64,000 nt of DNA from Clostridia bacterium. GTDB lineage: Bacteria > Bacillota > Clostridia > Oscillospirales > CAG-272. The notes beneath the pieces are model-generated. The model was not told the DNA's origin. It saw only the letters and a list, made by a program, of their open reading frames with translations, and did no database searches. The DNA lies in NCBI GenBank assembly GCA_017503325.1, contig JAFVTI010000038.1, forward strand, positions 114,428 through 178,427, read 5' to 3'. The position numbers and the translations under genes were made by a program. Of this stretch, positions 2,063-58,755 are shown piece after piece. How positions within the stretch are numbered: position 1 is the first letter of the stretch; each line of letters begins with the position of its first letter.

Positions 2063-3646
2063 TCAACCGATTGCCCACTCCATCTGTGCGCAGAGCTTTT
2101 TGAGCTGCTTTTCAAACGATCTCTCATACTTCGCCCACACAGAAGAGACCGAAGCGTTGCCGCTTTCCAGCGCGGTGCGGAACAGCATGACCTTTTCGCC
2201 GTCCGTCATGGCCATATAGTTACAGCCGAAATCAAAGGTCTTGGACTCCAGGATCAGCTGCAGCATTTCCACATCCTCGGGGCTTGAGCAAACACGCATG
2301 GAAAATTCCCCGTCATATAAGCCGTTATTGTACTGCCCCAAAGCTTCAAGCGCATAGCCCGCAAAATCCTGATTGCGCACGCTCTGCGGTACCATAACCG
2401 CGGTGGCATTGCAATCCACGTAAGAGTGATACTCCTCGACGTCCCAGTCAGCCTTGGGATACGGCATAATGCCGAATTGCGTGGAAGTATTGACCATATT
2501 CATAGCCTGCTCCAGCGTCGTGCCATAGAACAGCGCTCTGCCGTCCGCAAAGACCTTCTCGGGCACTTGCAATTGGTCATAATCCTGCATCACGTCGTTC
2601 ATGGTCACCCAGACCGAGGCGATATTATTGGTCAGATTGTAAAACACCTCGTATACCCACTCCATCTGAGGTAAGCCCTGACTAAGCACGGGGATCTGCG
2701 ATTCGTCCTTGACGATCAGGGATATACCTGCGCCCGTTGCGAAGGCTTGCGCTCCGTCAAAGGCAGAAACGTAAGAAAACAGATCCGCGTCGGCATCCGC
2801 CATGCCGTTACCGTTGAGATCCACGTAGTTGTTTGCCACCATGCCAAGCATCTTTTCCATGGTCCAGCCGCCTTCCCGGACGTAGCTGTACATATCGATA
2901 TGATTTTGCTCGGCAAGCTCAGGATTAAACAGGATCACAGAGGTCTTGAGCATGGCGTCGGGCGTGATCGAACCCGTTGCCATAGGCAGGTACGAGCCGT
3001 ATGCCAGGCCGTTGTAAATGTCCTCATCCCAGCGCTCGTGCGTCAGATCCACCCAAGGAAGCCCTGACAGATTGACCAGAGCACCGTTCTGCGCCAGGGG
3101 CGAGCCGTCGCGGGCGATTGAGCCAAATACGATGTCATAGCTGCCTTCTCCGGACACCACGTCGTTGAGCACCTGATCGTAAAGTGCAGTCTGCTCTACC
3201 AGAACGCCGTCCACCTCAATGCCGCAATAAGCCGTCAAGGCCGCATTGCGCGCATACGTGGCTTCCTCCATGGAATCTCCGGATCTCTCCGATCCAAGGT
3301 CGTGCTTGTGGATACCAAGCAGCGTCAGTCTCTCGCCCTCATACATGTGCATGGGCAGCTCGACCCAAGGGCCTTCGGTTTCGATCTCACCATAGGTCAC
3401 GTCCTCGGTCCACATTTCCTCAATCCAGGTCTCGGTTTCCCAATGTCCGTTGGTCTCGGTCTCAATGGGTACACCTCCTCCTACGGGAGGTTCAGGCTCT
3501 ATCACTCCAAGGTTCTCACCCGGCAGATCCAAATTTCCAAGCAGCTCGCCGACAATCCCGCCAAGCTCAAATTCGGCAAAATTGCAAGCGGTCAGCGCAC
3601 AGGTTAAGGTCAAACACAAAAGCGTGATCGCAATTCTCTTTTTCAT
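2063..3646 (-). CDS. orphan extracellular solute-binding-protein-like lipoprotein (divergent paralog of the 4679-12768 array)
   Basis: Internal ATG at 3646 with AAAGGAGAC upstream. N-terminus MKKRIAITLLCLTLTCALTAC (lipobox). Size and composition resemble ~500-aa family-1 sugar-binding SBPs. The ORF-track start at 3739 is an upstream extension. Confidence 0.55.
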   Translation of the reverse strand: MKKRIAITLLCLTLTCALTACNFAEFELGGIVGELLGNLDLPGENLGVIEPEPPVGGGVPIETETNGHWETETWIEEMWTEDVTYGEIETEGPWVELPMHMYEGERLTLLGIHKHDLGSERSGDSMEEATYARNAALTAYCGIEVDGVLVEQTALYDQVLNDVVSGEGSYDIVFGSIARDGSPLAQNGALVNLSGLPWVDLTHERWDEDIYNGLAYGSYLPMATGSITPDAMLKTSVILFNPELAEQNHIDMYSYVREGGWTMEKMLGMVANNYVDLNGNGMADADADLFSYVSAFDGAQAFATGAGISLIVKDESQIPVLSQGLPQMEWVYEVFYNLTNNIASVWVTMNDVMQDYDQLQVPEKVFADGRALFYGTTLEQAMNMVNTSTQFGIMPYPKADWDVEEYHSYVDCNATAVMVPQSVRNQDFAGYALEALGQYNNGLYDGEFSMRVCSSPEDVEMLQLILESKTFDFGCNYMAMTDGEKVMLFRTALESGNASVSSVWAKYERSFEKQLKKLCAQMEWAIG

Positions 3647-3752
3647 AAGCAGGTCTCCTTTCGGTTCTTTGAATCTATTATAGCAAATTTTCCCGCATTT
3701 GTAAATACGAAAAATACCTTCTACCCATATAGACGCCAAAAATGCAAAAAGG

Positions 3753-3783
3753 TTCCGCGAAATCAGAAAAAAATTTCGCGGAA
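3753..3783 (-). terminator. terminator hairpin after the metallophosphoesterase gene
   Basis: 11-bp stem TTCCGCGAAAT / ATTTCGCGGAA, followed on the minus strand by CCTTTTTGC. Confidence 0.6.
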
Positions 3784-3796
3784 TCTTAAAAAATTT

Positions 3797-4615
3797 TCAA
3801 TTTGCGGGGACCAGCGTGATCTTGCGCGAGATACCGAGGTACGCGCCGCCCGTGATATACTGCACAAGCCCGGGGGCAAGCTCGTCCTCATGCGAGAAAT
3901 GCAAGTGCCCTGCGATGATGGCGGCAATCCCCGACGCGGGATCACGCACGTACTCGCAAAACGCTTCCGTTGCCTCGTTTTTGAGGATTGCGCCCGGCCC
4001 TATGTTGATATTTCTGCGCCAATCGCGCACCGTATCGTCATGCAGCGAAGGGCAATTGATGGGGATATGCATGCAAAGCAGGATCGGCTTGCCCTTCTCC
4101 TTCAATGCCATGAGAAAATCAATATCCTCCCTCTGCACGCACTCCATGCCGTCGTCAATACCCGCCACGATCAGATCGGGATACTCCAGATAGTGCCGCG
4201 CGACATCACCGTCCGAAAGTGCTGCAAACTTGCCGTAGTGCTGCGCTCTTGCCCCCTCGGTGTGATAATCGTCCGAATACGACCAATCGTGATTGCCTAT
4301 GACAAACATGGTCCCCAGGCCGCCTGCCCCGATCTCTCGATACAGGTCGCGCACGTTGGGGTCGCTTGGCGTATCCACGATATCCCCGGTCATGAGCATC
4401 AGATCTGCGCCCCATTCGCGCGCATCGGCATAAAAGCCCTGCAGCCTTTGCACACAAGGCGTGCCGTCGGTCTCAAAAATACATCTTGCACGCAAGGCCG
4501 CCTCGTCGTGGCGGGATTGCGGGTCGTTCTCTCCCATCCCCGTCAGATGCAGATCGGTGATATGATAAAGCTTATACGTATGCTGTAAGCCTCGGATGGC
4601 AATGGTGGTTTCCAT
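3797..4615 (-). CDS. metallophosphoesterase (calcineurin-like phosphoesterase family)
   Basis: Motifs HITDLHL, GDIVD, GNHDW and GHLH in the canonical order. ATG preceded by AAGGGAGAAAAAT. Confidence 0.8.
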   Translation of the reverse strand: METTIAIRGLQHTYKLYHITDLHLTGMGENDPQSRHDEAALRARCIFETDGTPCVQRLQGFYADAREWGADLMLMTGDIVDTPSDPNVRDLYREIGAGGLGTMFVIGNHDWSYSDDYHTEGARAQHYGKFAALSDGDVARHYLEYPDLIVAGIDDGMECVQREDIDFLMALKEKGKPILLCMHIPINCPSLHDDTVRDWRRNINIGPGAILKNEATEAFCEYVRDPASGIAAIIAGHLHFSHEDELAPGLVQYITGGAYLGISRKITLVPAN

Positions 4616-12802: not shown

Positions 12803-12831
12803 ATTTTACCACTTTTGCCCGGAATTGTCAA
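12803..12831 (-). promoter_or_regulatory. sigma-A-type promoter of paralog 5
   Basis: Minus strand reads TTGACA (12831-12826), 17 nt, TAAAAT (12808-12803), with TGG extended -10. Confidence 0.6.
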
Positions 12832-12843
12832 GTCAAATTGGCT

Positions 12844-14337
12844 TCATTCTGCTTTTTTCTGTGCTTTGCGTCGGATCAGGCGTATAATCAGAAGGATCAG
12901 AACGATCACAAGCACGATGGCCACCACCGCGCCCAGAATGACCAACAGTACGGGCAGGACGAAGAACAAAAACAGAAACCAAATAAATGCAAAGCCGCTT
13001 GTCTCGATTGGATTTTTCCACTTGCACAGCGTCACGTAGTAAACACCACTTTTGGGCGTGGAGCGCTCGGACAGCGTATATCCCTTCCGATCCTTTTTGT
13101 AGTTATCAACAGAGAGGCTGTTTCTCTCGTCGGTCATGATCTTGAGCTTTGTATCGATTCTGACCGTGTACTTCCCTACCGATTTCCAATCGGAGCTGCC
13201 GTGGAAATGATAGGTGAAGGTGGCCGCCTTGGGGCTGTAATACTCCATCACGTCGGGATAAACCGGCAAGGTGATGGAATTGACCGTGCTCTCGCCCGCA
13301 CCCAGCGTGACGTCGTAGGTCAGAAATCCTTGCAGATTGGACGTAACATCCAGCTCCATCCGTGTCTGATAACCAATCAGACAGGTGTCTTTCAGCTGAC
13401 TGCATATCAACATACTAAAGACGGCATTGTACCAATCCTTTTCAGGAATGCCCGCATCCGGGTCGTACTCGCTCATGGCAAGCTCGCCAAAGGTGGTGGT
13501 GCTCTGTTCTACCAGCTGCACGTCGCAGCCTCCAACCCGTTTGCCGTCATCGGTCAGCTTCCAATTGACTTCTCCGATATCCTCACCCAGCACGTACAAA
13601 GTCACAAGCGAACCCTTTGAAACTCGCACACGCATTTGGGGAATTGCATTTTCCTCGTAAACGTCGACATGTTTATCGGAAAAGATCAACGTGCGGGATG
13701 CATCATAATCAAAGTCGGCGACCATGTCGCAATAAAAGCTTTCGTTATTTCCCGACGTAGAATAAGGCTGATAGGTATACACCGTAACGGGCAGATCGGG
13801 CGACAGGAGCGAGTGTGCAGCATAGGAATCCTGCAGATTCTCTGCCCAATCACGAGGATCATAACCGCTGCGGCCTGTTTGATAGTTTTGCGAATTAGGC
13901 GTCCATGCGTAGCGAAGCTCGGGCGTGACTCGCTCACCGCCCACCTCCACGGTATAGAATGAAGCAAGCTGCGCTCTTGTACAAAGCCTTTGCGCATAGG
14001 AGGGCGCGTTGGCTGCGGCAAACATCATTTTCACCGTTTGCTCGGTGTCGGTGGGGTTGGAAAAGGTATAGTCCAGGCGCAGCGTTGAGGAATACTTTTC
14101 CAAAAGCTCCGATTGGTCAAATTCATCTGCCGGCAGCTCGGGAATATCGTAGGTCAGTGCCAGGCTCTCCATGCTCAGCTGACTCTTGCGCCCCTTTGGG
14201 AAAACGCCAAAGACGTCTATACCGGGATCGGGCTCTATGGGCGACATGGCAGACGCGGGTAGGATGGCTAAGGCGCACAGCAAAATTGCCATCGCGCCTG
14301 CAGCCAGGTGCTTGAAAAATTTTTGATATCGATTCAT
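12844..14337 (-). CDS. exported protein of unknown family with long C-terminal hydrophobic anchor (paralog P1)
   Basis: Signal peptide ..AILLCALAILPASAMSP. C-terminus FAFIWFLFLFFVLPVLLVILGAVVAIVLVIVLILLIIRLIRRKAQKKAE. Shares TTTFGELAM..YDP.AGI...DW.NA with P2 and P3. Confidence 0.7.
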   Translation of the reverse strand: MNRYQKFFKHLAAGAMAILLCALAILPASAMSPIEPDPGIDVFGVFPKGRKSQLSMESLALTYDIPELPADEFDQSELLEKYSSTLRLDYTFSNPTDTEQTVKMMFAAANAPSYAQRLCTRAQLASFYTVEVGGERVTPELRYAWTPNSQNYQTGRSGYDPRDWAENLQDSYAAHSLLSPDLPVTVYTYQPYSTSGNNESFYCDMVADFDYDASRTLIFSDKHVDVYEENAIPQMRVRVSKGSLVTLYVLGEDIGEVNWKLTDDGKRVGGCDVQLVEQSTTTFGELAMSEYDPDAGIPEKDWYNAVFSMLICSQLKDTCLIGYQTRMELDVTSNLQGFLTYDVTLGAGESTVNSITLPVYPDVMEYYSPKAATFTYHFHGSSDWKSVGKYTVRIDTKLKIMTDERNSLSVDNYKKDRKGYTLSERSTPKSGVYYVTLCKWKNPIETSGFAFIWFLFLFFVLPVLLVILGAVVAIVLVIVLILLIIRLIRRKAQKKAE

Positions 14338-14346
14338 AAATTGTCC

Positions 14347-14637
14347 TCCGTTCGTTTAGCCGAACGGGAGCCGAACCAAGTTGGTTTTGACGGGCAGATT
14401 TTCCCGATCCCTGCATCTTTTCTCCCCGGACATATTGCCTATATGCCCTGCGAGAAAAGCTTTTGGGCTCAAAAAAATCTGCTGCGTCAAAACTGCTCGC
14501 ACCCGACGGCGAATGCATTTTTGATAGATTTTGGCGCGATTTTGCGAAGCAAGATACCAATCTTGCGAGTGAAAGCACGCCGGAAGATGCGAAAATGCAT
14601 CGTCGTCGGGCAATTCGGTTCGACTCCCGTTCGGCTA
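14347..14637 (-). promoter_or_regulatory. structured intercistronic RNA element with three mutually complementary segments, one covering the P1 Shine-Dalgarno
   Basis: Segment 14617-14637 (GGTTCGACTCCCGTTCGGCTA) is the inverse complement of 14357-14377, with 20 of 21 positions matching. The latter also pairs locally with 14347-14355, next to GGAGG. Confidence 0.45.
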
Positions 14638-14675
14638 TCCTTCATCAATCAGGACAGGATTCTTCCGTTTTGATT

Positions 14676-16160
14676 TCACTCTTGCTGCGTTTTTTTGCGT
14701 TTTTTGCGCTTGATGATCGCACGGACGATCAAAATCACAACCGCAACGGGCAGCGCAACGGCAAGCACCGGGACCAGCACGACGATCAGGATCAGCACGA
14801 GCATCAGTACCGAATAGGCATTGAAAACGCGCTTGGGATTTTCCGTGGAGCTGAGCGTAAACACCAGATCCCGCTCGGGCAAGCCGTCAATGTGCAGCTC
14901 GTAGCCCGCCTCGGTCTTGATCCACTCCCCCGGAGCTATGCTAAACTCTCCCTTTCGTTCCTTGACCATGACGTACGGCGTGTTGACGTAAATATCCAAC
15001 GTGCCGAACTCCTTCCAGAGCGAGGCGGGGGAGGTCAGATATTCATAGATGTAGATCGGAACGTCGTATCCTCCGTCAATATTCGGATAAAGCGGGGCTT
15101 TTACGGTATTGGTCAAACGCTCACCCGGGGCGATCTTGATTTGATACTCGTACCATTGCAAAAGATGCCCGGAAATATCCCAGTCGTTCACGACACCGCC
15201 ATACAGACCGATCGGCTTACCCGACTGCTCCAGCTGCGCCACGATGGCATTGAACCAATCGTGCGCCGCGATCCCCGCCGCGGGATCGTAGCATTGCATG
15301 GCAAGCTCGCCAAAGGTGGTGCTTGTCTTGTCCACCACGCTCATGCTGCCCTCGATCCGTGTCTCCAGGGAGCCGTTTTCATAAAACTCCCATTTCAACT
15401 CCCCGGCGTCCTCGCCAAACACGTACACCGTGATCTCGGGATCGGACAGGTGCACGGAAGCAAAACCCGCATTTCCGTTCTCGTCAGAGCTGTATCCGCT
15501 CATATGCTCCAGCATAAAGCGCGTCTTTTCCAATGCTCCGTCAAAATACGTAGCCGCACGTGCCGAGCGGTAGGTCTCACGGTCCACGCCGCTGACGCTG
15601 TAGGTGTAGATATATACGGGCAGATCAAAGGTCAGAAAGCTGTCGGTACGGTAATCGCTGTACAGCTTTGCCATTTCCTCGGCAGGATCAAAATCATAGA
15701 GCGATCCGCCCCAATAGCTGTGCCGAATCACGGTATCCACGTCTGCTCCGTTGACCTGTGCTCCGTATTTTGAAGCATTATCGGGGGTGACGTATTCTCC
15801 CAGCTCGGAATTGTAAAATTCCGCATAATAGGGGTTGATACCAAACGGAAACAGCAGATTTGCCGTGACCGTCATGTCACTTGGGTTATAAAAGGTATAC
15901 TCTGCCGTCACGCTTGCATCGTACGCAAGGTAGTCCTTTGCGCTGCCAAAATGATTGGCGGGAAATTCCGCAATATCAAAGGTCAGCGTTTCGTGCTCGA
16001 CCACCAACGGGCATTCCCCATCGGTGACCAATACGCCCGAAGCGTTGACGCCCTCCCAATACGACTCCGCAGAATTGGCGGACGCAGGCAGGACGGCAAG
16101 CAGGCACAGAAGTGCGGCCAACAGCGCCGCAAGGGCGACTTTTGTTTTCTTACGCATCAT
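14676..16160 (-). CDS. exported protein of unknown family with C-terminal hydrophobic anchor (paralog P2)
   Basis: MMRKKTKVALAALLAALLCLLAVLPASANS signal. C-terminus ..LMLVLILIVVLVPVLAVALPVAVVILIVRAIIKRKKRKKTQQE. Its start overlaps the P3 stop (16150-16160). Confidence 0.7.
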   Translation of the reverse strand: MMRKKTKVALAALLAALLCLLAVLPASANSAESYWEGVNASGVLVTDGECPLVVEHETLTFDIAEFPANHFGSAKDYLAYDASVTAEYTFYNPSDMTVTANLLFPFGINPYYAEFYNSELGEYVTPDNASKYGAQVNGADVDTVIRHSYWGGSLYDFDPAEEMAKLYSDYRTDSFLTFDLPVYIYTYSVSGVDRETYRSARAATYFDGALEKTRFMLEHMSGYSSDENGNAGFASVHLSDPEITVYVFGEDAGELKWEFYENGSLETRIEGSMSVVDKTSTTFGELAMQCYDPAAGIAAHDWFNAIVAQLEQSGKPIGLYGGVVNDWDISGHLLQWYEYQIKIAPGERLTNTVKAPLYPNIDGGYDVPIYIYEYLTSPASLWKEFGTLDIYVNTPYVMVKERKGEFSIAPGEWIKTEAGYELHIDGLPERDLVFTLSSTENPKRVFNAYSVLMLVLILIVVLVPVLAVALPVAVVILIVRAIIKRKKRKKTQQE

Positions 16161-17730
16161 CGTTTTTCTCCTTTTCCTCCCCTTCTGTTTCTGTGATTTT
16201 CTCGGGCTGCGGCGGGATTTGCTCTGCTGCCCTTCTCTTTTTCCTTACTTTTCTGACGATCAGAAGGATGATCAGCGCAAGAATTGCCAAAGGCACCGCC
16301 GCGGGAAGGATGACACAAACAAACAGTACGATCAGAATCACAAGCAAATACAAAAGCAATGCAATAATGGAACTGTCAAACGGTTTTTGCTTTTCGCAGA
16401 CAGAGATCACCAGATAGTCAAAATCCGTATCTCCCTCCCAGCAATAGCCGTCCTCGGTTTGCTCATATTCCTTTTGGCTCGGAGTGGGGGCATCCACGTC
16501 ACACAAATACAGATCGGTCAGAATGCGCACGCTTGTCGGTCCGCACGTGCTCCAGGCTTCCGCTGCCGTCATGGCAAAGGCGTAGGTATATACCGACGGA
16601 CTGTAATTACCGTGCTCAAACGGATGCAGAGGTGCCGTGACTTTCACCGTAGCACTCTGCCCCGGTGCCAGCGTAAGATCAAAGCTGTTCCAGGCTTGCA
16701 GGTTGCTCTCATTAAGCTCCACCGTATCTCCCATATACGTCACGGCAGTCCCCTCGGTCCGATTGCTCGTAATATATGCAATAACTGCATTATAGTAGTC
16801 GATTTCGGATACACTTCCCTGCGCGTCATAGCCTTTCATAATCAGCTCGTAAAAGGACATTGTGGTTTTTGAAACCAACGTCACGCGCGCGTCCAATCGG
16901 TCTCCGTCCGCATCCACCGTCCAAGCCACCTCTCCTACGTCTGCGCCGATCGAATAAACGGTGGGGTTTTCACGATTAAACCCGGGAAAAGAAATTCTTA
17001 CCTTGTTCTCTCCCGCATTGGCAGGATACCACGCATTGGAAGGATACCACGCATCGGTGACAAGCACCGCGCACCTTGACGGATCGGCAACCAAAGAGCC
17101 CGACACTTCAAACATATCATCCTTTTGCGAGGTATCGTATTCGGTGCGATAGGCATATACGTAAACGGTCGCATCCGGTGCAAGAATGGAGTGCGGAACG
17201 TAAGTATCCGAATAATAAGCAAGAAATGCTGAGGCAGGGTCACGTTTTCCAAGTTGCGTGGGTGCGTGATAGTAGCTGTTATCCGGCGTATAGGAATGGC
17301 GCTGTTGCGCCTGTACCTGTTCCCCATCGATCTCCACGGTGTACTTATTTGCATCCGTGCCGTACGGCAGATCGTATGCATACCAGGGATCAGTGCCGAT
17401 GGGCGTCAACATACGCTCGGTGACGGTCTGATCGGTGGGATTGTGTATCGTATATGTGGCTATCGTATTTGCACTGTACGCAAGAAACTCTTCTTCGGTC
17501 TTGTACCGACTCTTGGGCGGCAGCTCACAGGCGTTCAATTCAATCTCGGTACGTTCCAGCGCAAGCGCGGTGGCCCCGTCCGCAACGAACAAACCACCCG
17601 CCACGCTGCCGGCATATGGCCCCGCGGGGTCAATGGCTGCAAAAGAAGGCATGACGGCAAGGACGCAAAGCAAAATTGCCGTCGCGCCTGCCGTCATGCT
17701 CTTGAGTATGGCTCTAAAATTTTTCTTCAT
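16150..17730 (-). CDS. exported protein of unknown family with C-terminal hydrophobic anchor and acidic tail (paralog P3)
   Basis: ATG at 17730 after GGAGGAAACGTCT. MKKNFRAILKSMTAGATAILLCVLAVMPSFAA signal. C-terminus ..LLLYLLVILIVLFVCVILPAAVPLAILALIILLIVRKVRKKRR plus a Glu-rich tail. Confidence 0.7.
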   Translation of the reverse strand: MKKNFRAILKSMTAGATAILLCVLAVMPSFAAIDPAGPYAGSVAGGLFVADGATALALERTEIELNACELPPKSRYKTEEEFLAYSANTIATYTIHNPTDQTVTERMLTPIGTDPWYAYDLPYGTDANKYTVEIDGEQVQAQQRHSYTPDNSYYHAPTQLGKRDPASAFLAYYSDTYVPHSILAPDATVYVYAYRTEYDTSQKDDMFEVSGSLVADPSRCAVLVTDAWYPSNAWYPANAGENKVRISFPGFNRENPTVYSIGADVGEVAWTVDADGDRLDARVTLVSKTTMSFYELIMKGYDAQGSVSEIDYYNAVIAYITSNRTEGTAVTYMGDTVELNESNLQAWNSFDLTLAPGQSATVKVTAPLHPFEHGNYSPSVYTYAFAMTAAEAWSTCGPTSVRILTDLYLCDVDAPTPSQKEYEQTEDGYCWEGDTDFDYLVISVCEKQKPFDSSIIALLLYLLVILIVLFVCVILPAAVPLAILALIILLIVRKVRKKRRAAEQIPPQPEKITETEGEEKEKNDDA

Positions 17731-17850
17731 AGACGTTTCCTCCAAATCATAATGCGGTTGGGGGCTTCTATCTATACAGTCGGAAAAAATGTGTTTTCGT
17801 TCCGTTTTTCGCCAAAAAACGTTTGTTAATATTTTGTGAATGACTCGGAA

Positions 17851-57295: not shown

Positions 57296-57400
57296 ACCGC
57301 ATAAAAAATCAGGGGTGCTGAAGGCCAAGAGCCAACGGCTGAGATGCGCAGGCGCGCGAACCCTTAACCTGATACGGATAATACCGGCGTAGGAAGATTT
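57296..57400 (+). promoter_or_regulatory. TPP (THI-box) riboswitch
   Basis: CAGGGGTGC...GGCTGAGA...GAACCCTTAACCTGATACGGATAATACCGGCGTAGGAAG matches the THI-element core. Confidence 0.9.
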
Positions 57401-57425
57401 GCACATACTTGAGATAGGAATTCCT

Positions 57426-58350: not shown

Positions 58351-58714
58351 TGCAGCTTGGCTAAACGGCCGCGCCGTATGTTGCCGAAAGGTATTACGGT
58401 GAGGAAAGTCCGGGCTTTACAGGGCAAGGGTAGCTGATAACGTCAGCCGCGGGTAACCGCCGGGAAAGTGCAACAGAAATAAACCGCCGCGCATGCGGTA
58501 AGGATGGAAAGGCGAGGTAAGAGCTCACCCACTTCTATGGTAACATAGATTTGCTGTAAACCCTACTCAAAGCAACACCGTTCGGGGAATGTCTGCCCGA
58601 CAGCCGCAAGGACCCGATGGGTGGCATGAGCGTTATGCTCGGAGCTTCTTGGTGACAAGGAGCAAAGATAGATGGCCGTTCTCGACAGAACCCGGCTTAC
58701 AGGCAAAGCTGCAA
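58351..58714 (+). ncRNA. rnpB: RNase P RNA (bacterial type A-like)
   Basis: GAGGAAAGTCCGGGC (P4 5' strand), AGTGCAACAGAAA, ACAGAACCCGGCTTAC (P4 3' strand). P1 pairs GCAGCTTGGC with GCAAAGCTGC. TGTGCTATAAT promoter at 58334-44. Confidence 0.9.
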
Positions 58715-58755
58715 AAAACGCTGACGCGTTGCGTCAGCGTTTTTTGCAGCTTTGC
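58703..58755. terminator. 25-bp perfect inverted repeat (bidirectional terminator) overlapping the rnpB 3' end
   Basis: GCAAAGCTGCAAAAAACGCTGACGC-GTT-GCGTCAGCGTTTTTTGCAGCTTTGC. Confidence 0.8.

Follow-up and report, generated by a model that had tools for sequence, protein, structure and literature searches.

A Clostridial Array of Membrane-Anchored Proteins Distantly Related to the DUF4424 and VIT Beta-Sandwich Families

Introduction

The Pfam family DUF4424 (PF14415) is defined by the structure of lpg2210 from Legionella pneumophila (4g2a), which was deposited in the PDB as a 'putative nutrient binding protein'. The fold is a 19-stranded sandwich that resembles the N-terminal domain of LTA4H and the M1 aminopeptidases, a substrate- or partner-binding role has been proposed for it, and it occurs mainly in Proteobacteria and Fusobacteria (PMC3848476). 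An N-terminal beta-sandwich with a similar signature (F/Y-x-N ... FP) is found in the VIT domain (PF08487, PF13757) of inter-alpha-trypsin inhibitor heavy chains and of bacterial VIT-vWA proteins. Here we describe three adjacent genes, P1, P2 and P3, in a stretch of 64,000 nucleotides (hereafter the window) from an uncultured member of the Oscillospirales (Clostridia bacterium, lineage CAG-272; assembly GCA_017503325.1, contig JAFVTI010000038.1, positions 114,428 to 178,427). They encode exported, membrane-anchored proteins of a large and unnamed clostridial family, which forms a remote offshoot of the beta-sandwich superfamily of DUF4424- and VIT-like proteins and lies outside PF14415 by its curated cut-off.

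Three Paralogous Exported Proteins

P3, P2 and P1 follow one another on the minus strand (Table 1), and all three are intact genes. Their products are identical in sequence to the hypothetical proteins MBR2446863-65, recorded at NCBI from an uncultured Clostridia metagenome-assembled genome. The ATG of P3 is preceded by a GGAGG ribosome-binding site, and this start agrees with the 526-aa product at NCBI. The three proteins are paralogs: in BLASTP, P1 matches P3 (E 6e-56) and P2 (E 1e-43) along almost its whole length, with 30% identity in each case. On their common plan, a signal peptide of the signal peptidase I (A-x-A) type precedes an ectodomain of ~415 aa, which is followed by a hydrophobic helix at the C-terminus and a tail rich in Lys and Arg. 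A preliminary description of the locus had proposed three exported paralogs of one architecture with shared ectodomain blocks and basic C-terminal clusters. This is borne out by the open reading frames (ORFs), the signal peptides and the BLASTP paralogy; the blocks are present in the alignment of P1-P3 and the clusters in all three proteins.

An AlphaFold2 (AF2) model of P2, built from an alignment of 39 sequences, has a predicted local distance difference test score (pLDDT) of 86 and a predicted template modelling score (pTM) of 0.77; apart from one long helix at the C-terminus it is nearly all beta. The model of P1, made independently (pLDDT 88.7), is mostly beta and also ends in one continuous helix. 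Across 39 diverse members of the family the residues E55, E57, D95, R146, D168, D301 and N304 are invariant or nearly so.

Remote Kinship With DUF4424 and VIT Domains

Scans of P1-P3 against Pfam, NCBIfam, PADLOC and PHROGs gave no family above threshold, and PDB sequence searches with the three proteins returned nothing significant. DUF2207_C, MetJ, the ErbB transmembrane segment and similar candidates were set aside as noise only (E about 0.1). Structure comparison with Foldseek gave a consistent answer, with 4g2a as the top PDB match for both the P2 model (E 7.4e-7, probability 1.00) and the P1 model (E 4.5e-6, probability 1.00, TM-score 0.45) and the only match with E <0.001 for either. 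Weaker matches were to the VIT domain of ITIH1 (probability 0.6 for P2, 0.9 for P1) and, at probabilities of 0.16-0.47, to ERAP1 for the P2 model and LTA4H for the P1 model.

Profile searches point in the same direction. Sub-threshold matches to DUF4424 were seen in 24 of 39 members (E up to 1, best E 7.5e-4), and in the 10 members examined in detail all 10 placed residues 77-146 on model positions 27-96. The members examined score 11-15 bits, below the PF14415 gathering cut-off of 27 bits, and P1, P2 and P3 themselves have no DUF4424 match in the Pfam scan. VIT_2 was matched below threshold by 13 of 39 members (13-16 bits vs a gathering value of 23, best E 0.014), with residues 77-105 falling on model positions 23-52 in those examined. 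For comparison, a true DUF4424 protein, the gene for which was recovered from a Rhizobium plasmid by tblastn, scores 305 bits against PF14415; a 98-aa fragment of lpg2210 brought up no homolog when used as a query. When a profile of the present family was compared with one of 29 diverse true DUF4424 proteins using hhalign, the two aligned with 95.5% probability (E 1.3e-8) over 111 columns, all in the N-terminal third. The aligned columns take in the residues at the signal-peptidase site (A-N-S here, A-N-D in DUF4424), a YxFxNxSDxxVTxxxxFP block and a VxGxxV block. Extension of the homology to the C-terminal two thirds was unsupported (hhalign E 0.16-0.25), and the resemblances noticed in those parts are at motif level: WYEYEITLAPGE vs FHWEQTFPAGK, and YTYLLSPAxTW..FGxLDI vs YVLTTGANWKGPIGxFHLTI.

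It is the fold matches, the same-register sub-threshold matches and the profile-profile homology that place the family as a distant branch of the DUF4424/VIT superfamily. The preliminary description saw no recognisable family here, which holds insofar as nothing passes a curated threshold but misses a remote link that is reproducible, and the beta-sandwich DUF-type periplasmic proteins to which it vaguely likened the N-terminal block correspond to DUF4424 by Foldseek, by hhalign and by the sub-threshold profile matches. It would have given up the novelty of the proteins on a match to a characterised family; the link to DUF4424 is no such match, since DUF4424 is itself uncharacterised.

Both families share secretion by a signal peptide, a mature N-terminus of Asn-Ser/Asp directly after the A-x-A cleavage site, the two sequence blocks and a multi-sheet beta-sandwich like that of 4g2a, and both are functionally uncharacterised. 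They differ in size, DUF4424 proteins having 300-360 aa with a domain of ~300 aa, whereas P1-P3 have 494-526 aa and an ectodomain of ~415 aa. P1-P3 end in a C-terminal transmembrane (TM) anchor and basic tail, whereas DUF4424 proteins carry a YARHG domain or nothing in this position, and the present family belongs to Gram-positive Clostridia while DUF4424 is mainly Gram-negative. Unlike VIT proteins, P1-P3 have no vWA domain, and only ~30 residues align by sequence. In contrast to the M1 aminopeptidases and leukotriene A4 hydrolase, they lack a zincin catalytic domain and HEXXH.

A Large Clostridial Family With P2 as Its Conserved Member

A word-indexed homolog search returned 233 matches, which lacked any Pfam domain and were without exception unnamed or "hypothetical". 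By exhaustive HMMER search the family comprises 1,557 clusters at 50% identity (E up to 1e-3), or 745 at E up to 1e-30, and in a GTDB collection with one genome per species 223 stretches encode a relative. We examined 89 loci, a count that includes the window and a few duplicate contigs. A single family gene is present in 74 of these, in unrelated contexts, and tandem arrays occur only in the clade of the window and, independently, in one further lineage (L007; loci are cited by our numbers where they must be told apart). No neighbouring gene is conserved family-wide, and recurrent clusters represent clade-level synteny only. In L007 (9049-16215) the family gene has been triplicated independently, and the genes on either side of the triplication encode a 299-aa multi-pass membrane protein without a Pfam match and a 563-aa membrane protein of the CvpA (Colicin_V) family.

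Neighbour-joining places P2 on a short branch, together with the single-copy genes of Oscillospiraceae, Lachnospiraceae, Christensenellaceae, Anaerovoracaceae and Pseudoflavonifractor, while P1, P3 and the further array copies form long clade-specific branches. P2 is thus the conserved core gene, normally single-copy in Clostridia, and P1 and P3 are functional, fast-diverging and strain-variable local duplicates. An ANSA..W.G motif, predicted to be cleaved after the first Ala to give the mature N-terminus NSAQxxWxG, is present in 221 of 258 members. In P2 it spans residues 28-37 (window 16050-16079) and the mature protein would begin NSAESYWEG; alignment shows that the motif has been lost in P1 and P3. 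True DUF4424 proteins also have, almost without exception, an Asn in first place behind the cleavage site (ANDST, cleaved after the Ala), and conservation in both families suggests that the free N-terminus is functionally important.

Table 1. Features of the P1-P3 array and its surroundings, in window coordinates.
Feature	Position	Strand	Remarks
P3	16150-17730	minus	526 aa from ATG, or 531 aa from upstream TTG; first gene of array
P3 signal peptide	17635-17730	minus	about residues 1-31/32
P3 hydrophobic anchor	16255-16374	minus	residues 453-492, 40 uncharged; then RKVRKKRR and acidic tail
P2	14676-16160	minus	494 aa; canonical conserved ortholog of family
P2 signal peptide	16077-16160	minus	residues 1-28
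P2 hydrophobic anchor	14724-14819	minus	residues 448-479, 32 uncharged; then RAIIKRKKRKK
P1	12844-14337	minus	497 aa; divergent paralog with allelic-island ectodomain
P1 signal peptide	14248-14337	minus	residues 1-30
P1 hydrophobic anchor	12883-13002	minus	residues 446-485, 40 uncharged; then RLIRRKAQKK
Miniature inverted-repeat element, ~282 bp	14356-14637		terminal inverted repeats of 21-23 bp, TA flanks; between P2 and P1
ECF-sigma-type promoter-like element, GGAAC-N16-CGACTGTAT	17774-17803	minus	rsfS-P3 intergenic region; ends 44 nt upstream of P3 ATG
Second ECF-type match, GGAAC-TTTTT-N11-CGTCTATAT	3727-3756	minus	upstream of long SBP-like lipoprotein gene 2063-3646
Sigma-70-like promoter, TTGACA-17-TGnTAAAAT	12803-12831	minus	first SBP-like lipoprotein gene; 11/12 matches plus TG; downstream array boundary
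ECF, extracytoplasmic function; SBP, solute-binding protein.

An Extracytoplasmic Function-Type Promoter Motif Before the Array

In Bacillus subtilis, promoters read by the extracytoplasmic function (ECF) sigma factors of sigM, sigW, sigX and sigV carry tgaAAC at -35, CGTC, CGAC or CGTA at -10, and a T-tract by the -35 element (PMC5758882). A recurring motif of this kind, GAAAC-N16-CGTCTATAT, was noticed on reading the upstream regions of 78 family genes. In its strict form it lies within 150 nt upstream of 7 of the 78, the background rate being 0.0026 per 150 nt. The resulting P (about 2e-9) overstates independence because the genes are related, although at least four separate lineages are involved. 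The pattern GGAACN{15,17}CGWCTRTAT has exactly two matches in the 64-kb window and none in 100 shuffles. One match precedes P3 and the other precedes the long lipoprotein gene 2063-3646, which resembles a solute-binding protein (SBP).

The motif is kept before the first array gene in related loci (L001, L009, L013-L015, L017, L090-L093) and before single-copy orthologs in others (L060, L062, L073, L074). A looser motif has 28 matches over all loci, of which ~20 have a CGWCT -10 element and lie upstream of a first-array or family gene or a lipoprotein gene. The version before the lipoprotein gene is nearly invariant, spacer included, in nine loci (L001, L009-L013, L016-L018). These elements resemble the B. 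subtilis ECF promoters in the AAC at -35, the ~16-nt spacer and the CGTC or CGAC at -10, with a T-tract by -35 in the lipoprotein-gene promoter, and the B. subtilis regulons likewise include genes for membrane or envelope proteins. We know of no sequence homolog of the family in the B. subtilis ECF regulons. No sporulation-type promoter was apparent by eye in the aligned upstream regions, of which no formal scan was run.

As the same motif stands before the array and before a lipoprotein gene 14 kb downstream, it may define a small co-regulated set of envelope proteins. The motif is absent from most family genes and many have sigma-70-like promoters, so ECF control is put forward as a well-supported hypothesis for the clade of the window and not as a family-wide property.

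The lipoprotein gene 2063-3646 has tandem promoter-like elements (3682-3771, minus strand), with a sigma-70-like TTTACA-N17-TGCTATAAT ~20 nt downstream of the ECF-type element. The lipoproteins have FGGLVGELLG in common, directly behind the lipobox Cys. ECF sigma genes are common in these genomes, and in three unrelated lineages one lies beside a family gene together with a gene for a transmembrane protein, a putative anti-sigma factor. In L077 (8817-11458) the Pfam-confirmed ECF sigma gene and the transmembrane-protein gene are directly upstream of the family gene, in one row and 25 nt apart; in L086 (8351-11452) the family gene and the pair diverge, and in L036 (3167-6102) the pair is just downstream.

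Proposed Role and Alternative Readings

We tentatively favour a reading in which P1-P3 are type I envelope binding or scaffold proteins, driven by an ECF sigma factor and made up of a core member, P2, and variable duplicates. The array would be transcribed under envelope stress from the ECF-type promoter before P3, a type used for cell-envelope stress genes. The proteins would be exported by Sec and cleaved by signal peptidase I, in P2 probably before Asn29. A single C-terminal TM helix would then hold the ectodomain on the outer face of the cytoplasmic membrane, with the Lys/Arg stop-transfer tail staying in the cytoplasm. The multi-sheet beta-sandwich of ~415 aa would thereby be exposed, and its concave side may bind or scaffold between membrane and wall. 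By analogy with the DUF4424, VIT and M1 N-terminal folds, which are thought to bind substrates or partners and not to catalyse, a non-enzymatic binding or scaffold role is the most likely one. P1 and P3, which keep the fold, would widen or vary what is bound.

Several points weigh against this reading. The binding or scaffold role is proposed by analogy only, to a family that is itself uncharacterised, and a catalytic or metal site could be made up of several conserved polar residues (E55, E57, R146, D301 and N304). The likeness to 4g2a is modest by TM-score (0.39-0.45 normalised to target), and the DUF4424 homology stops at the N-terminal third, with the C-terminal 300 aa giving E 0.16-0.25 in cropped hhalign profiles. 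As regards regulation, there is no ECF sigma gene within the window, such genes lie near family genes in 11 of ~80 loci, which is not clearly above background, and the motif precedes only ~10-15% of family genes, many of the others having sigma-70-like promoters.

The genes downstream of the array suggest another role. Between 2063 and 12774 the window carries six paralogous SBP_bac_8-like lipoprotein genes and one metallophosphoesterase gene (3797-4615). The preliminary description correctly noted that the SBP-like genes come next on the same strand; synteny with them is found in 14 of 79 loci, all from the clade of the window, and fails elsewhere. P1-P3 could accordingly be membrane-side partners of orphan SBP-like lipoproteins, serving clade-specific nutrient capture by docking or ligand handover. 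We consider this unlikely. The adjacency on one strand in the window and 14 related loci, the ECF-type motif common to the array and the long SBP-like gene, and the PDB title of 4g2a all speak for such a partnership. However, the family gene stands alone in 74 of 89 loci, where it has unrelated housekeeping surroundings and no SBP genes, and a separate, strong sigma-70-like promoter (11/12 matches plus TG) precedes each of the two SBP-like genes nearest to P1. An SBP-dependent ATP-binding cassette (ABC) uptake system would have adjacent permease and ATPase genes, and no ORF for an ABC permease or ATPase is present between 2063 and 17745, where the large ORFs are those of the six lipoproteins, the metallophosphoesterase and P1-P3.

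The conserved residues raise the question of catalysis. The ectodomain might act on the cell wall, extracellular peptides or glycans, either as an enzyme or as a non-catalytic subunit that an enzyme requires, for which the N-terminal domain of the M1 aminopeptidases would be a precedent. Near-invariance of the acidic and polar residues listed above over 39 diverse members, the strictly conserved Asn-Ser/Asp at the mature N-terminus, common to DUF4424, and the weak fold matches to ERAP1 and LTA4H are compatible with this idea, and pairing with a catalytic partner has been proposed for DUF4424 (PMC3848476). Nonetheless, no catalytic family was matched in Pfam, NCBIfam or PDB, the related domain in M1 peptidases is the non-catalytic one, and no conserved neighbouring enzyme gene was found. 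An enzymatic role appears improbable, and a binding or scaffold function is still preferred.

Array Instability and Allelic Variation

The number of array copies differs among near-identical genomes, with three in the window and in L091, four in L009 and at least five in L090. Relative to L009, the nearest relative and our reference for comparison, the junction of the deletion or duplication falls inside the shared signal-peptide coding region (window 17639-17676 vs L009 6877-8484). The P1 ectodomain (window 12900-14062) is an allelic island with 74-75% nucleotide identity to L009 against 94-99% in the flanks, and the differences occur in patches. Synonymous divergence (dS) from L009 is 0.67 in P1, compared with 0.05-0.18 for P3 and P2 (0.18 in P2). 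The ratios of non-synonymous to synonymous divergence (dN/dS) are 0.25 for P1 and 0.19 for P2, which indicates that the array copies are under purifying selection. Variation of this kind in copies and alleles is the usual pattern that would be expected of surface-exposed binding modules.

It is also conceivable that variation is itself the main role and that the locus encodes variable surface antigens, phage receptors or decoys. The 3 to at least 5 copies in close relatives, the recombination junction in conserved 5' ends, the divergence of the P1 ectodomain relative to its flanks and the independent triplication in L007 would all be in keeping with this. Yet selection on P2 and P1 is purifying, not positive, overall, most species have one conserved copy, and there is no PADLOC, PHROGs or meaningful BFVD (viral protein) match. 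We regard such a locus as slightly less probable than the SBP partnership or the enzyme.

The preliminary description called the three genes an operon. This suits P3 and P2, as the start of P2 lies within P3, with an overlap of 11 nt. Between P2 and P1, however, there is a gap of 338 bp, created by the insertion of a mobile element that is missing in the nearest relative, where the empty site is a 27-bp spacer. A copy of the element with 92.5% identity is present elsewhere in L009, at a position where the window has an empty site. Four metagenome contigs (L094-L097) carry the element with four different flanks, each with TA followed by GCCGAACGG, and its predicted RNA fold has a z of -11 vs shuffled sequences. 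The spacer element is a miniature inverted-repeat element (MITE) and not a regulatory region of the array. The genes would have been tightly packed before the insertion, which fits an ancestral operon.

A pseudogene remnant in the P2-P1 spacer was also considered, and blastx against family proteins found nothing. The spacer contains no tRNA, and nothing in it was matched in an Rfam gathering scan of the whole window. Elsewhere in the window the Rfam matches are a thiamine pyrophosphate (TPP) riboswitch (57301-57412, 67.9 bits) and a bacterial RNase P class A RNA (58353-58715, 226.5 bits).

The C-Terminal Anchor and Membrane Topology

The feature of P1-P3 that first drew attention was the C-terminal hydrophobic stretch, which the preliminary description put at 40-45 residues and treated as a puzzling and defining trait because of its length and internal Pro. 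The run is indeed long, but the uncharged stretches measure 40, 32 and 40 residues in P1, P2 and P3, and the trait is not a general one. The median run is 39 in the clade of the window (at least 45% identical to P2), where 40 of 41 members have at least 30 residues and 15 of 41 at least 50. It is 23 among matches 36-45% identical to P2 (41 of 69 at 24 or fewer) and 26 among the representatives of the exhaustive search (51 of 131 at 24 or fewer), many members of the wider family having 19-23. Overall, the run spans 16-72 residues in homologs and it seems that the anchor grows through expansion of hydrophobic segments. The evidence favours the view that the long anchor is a clade-specific elongation of what would otherwise be an ordinary type I stop-transfer anchor, and the trait that attracted notice is a lineage quirk.

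Five clade members (P0021, P0029, P0033, P0037, P0041) have C-terminal runs of 63-72 without a charged or strongly polar residue; these could hold three membrane passes almost without loops.

By the positive-inside rule, basic residues that flank a membrane segment stay on the cytoplasmic side. The median tail after the anchor is 9 aa long, Lys/Arg account for 5 of its first 10 residues, and in P3 a further 26 residues follow the basic cluster. As the N-terminus is exported and the C-terminal cluster is basic, an odd number of passes is favoured. Runs of 19-23 residues fit one pass and runs of 53-72 fit three, and both would leave the C-terminus inside. The AF2 models show a single helix over residues 448-493 in P2 and 448-496 in P1. 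Most simply, therefore, we infer a single TM pass with the basic tail in the cytoplasm, in which the run of 32-40 residues would be made up of one pass and a membrane-adjacent hydrophobic extension.

The helical hairpin over which the preliminary description hesitated, or else a re-entrant loop, would leave the basic cluster outside. The run does exceed one bilayer thickness and has a Pro or Gly near its middle, but this topology is very unlikely given the continuous helix in both models, the basic cluster after the run in nearly all members as read by the positive-inside rule, and the run lengths in the wider family (19-23) and in some clade members (53-72), which suit one or three passes.

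The tripartite layout, with a hydrophobic segment and then a basic cluster, is reminiscent of LPXTG sortase substrates and of PEP-CTERM signals, E-x-P occurs somewhere in the last 80 residues of 146 of 258 members, and two members have very weak Gram_pos_anchor matches (E 0.089), but processing by a sortase-, exosortase- or rhombosortase-like enzyme to yield a wall-linked or released protein is hardly credible, as LPxT[GASN], NPxT[GN] or [SP]PxTG motifs are found in the last 80 residues of none of the 258 members, NCBIfam gives no CTERM sorting-domain match, anchor length varies from 16 to 72 residues, some cytoplasmic tails are long, as in P3, and no processing enzyme is a conserved neighbour.

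Significance

The family represented by P1-P3 is a new architectural and taxonomic variant of a catalogued but uncharacterised fold family and not a new kind of system. It is possible, with little probability on our assessment, that it constitutes an unrecognised, Clostridia-wide class of membrane-tethered DUF4424-like surface receptors, in which the Asn-Ser-Ala-Gln-x-x-Trp-x-Gly N-terminus (Ala-Asn-Asp in DUF4424) would be a ligand or metal site, and which would be wired to ECF control in some lineages and expanded into strain-variable arrays. If so, the arrays could be an envelope-stress-induced, antigenically variable surface layer or a phage-receptor/decoy system.

The family merits a name and tests in a cultured relative, for example Pseudoflavonifractor capillosus, where it is represented by BACCAP_01692, and would be unsurprising to a specialist. 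The ECF-type promoter, the strain-level variation in copies and alleles and the conserved mature N-terminus are testable leads, and 4g2a offers a solved structure to start from. This is a large family, abundant in gut and rumen Clostridia, that is unnamed and functionally uncharacterised, and its link to DUF4424 carries that orphan family into the Gram-positives in a membrane-anchored form.

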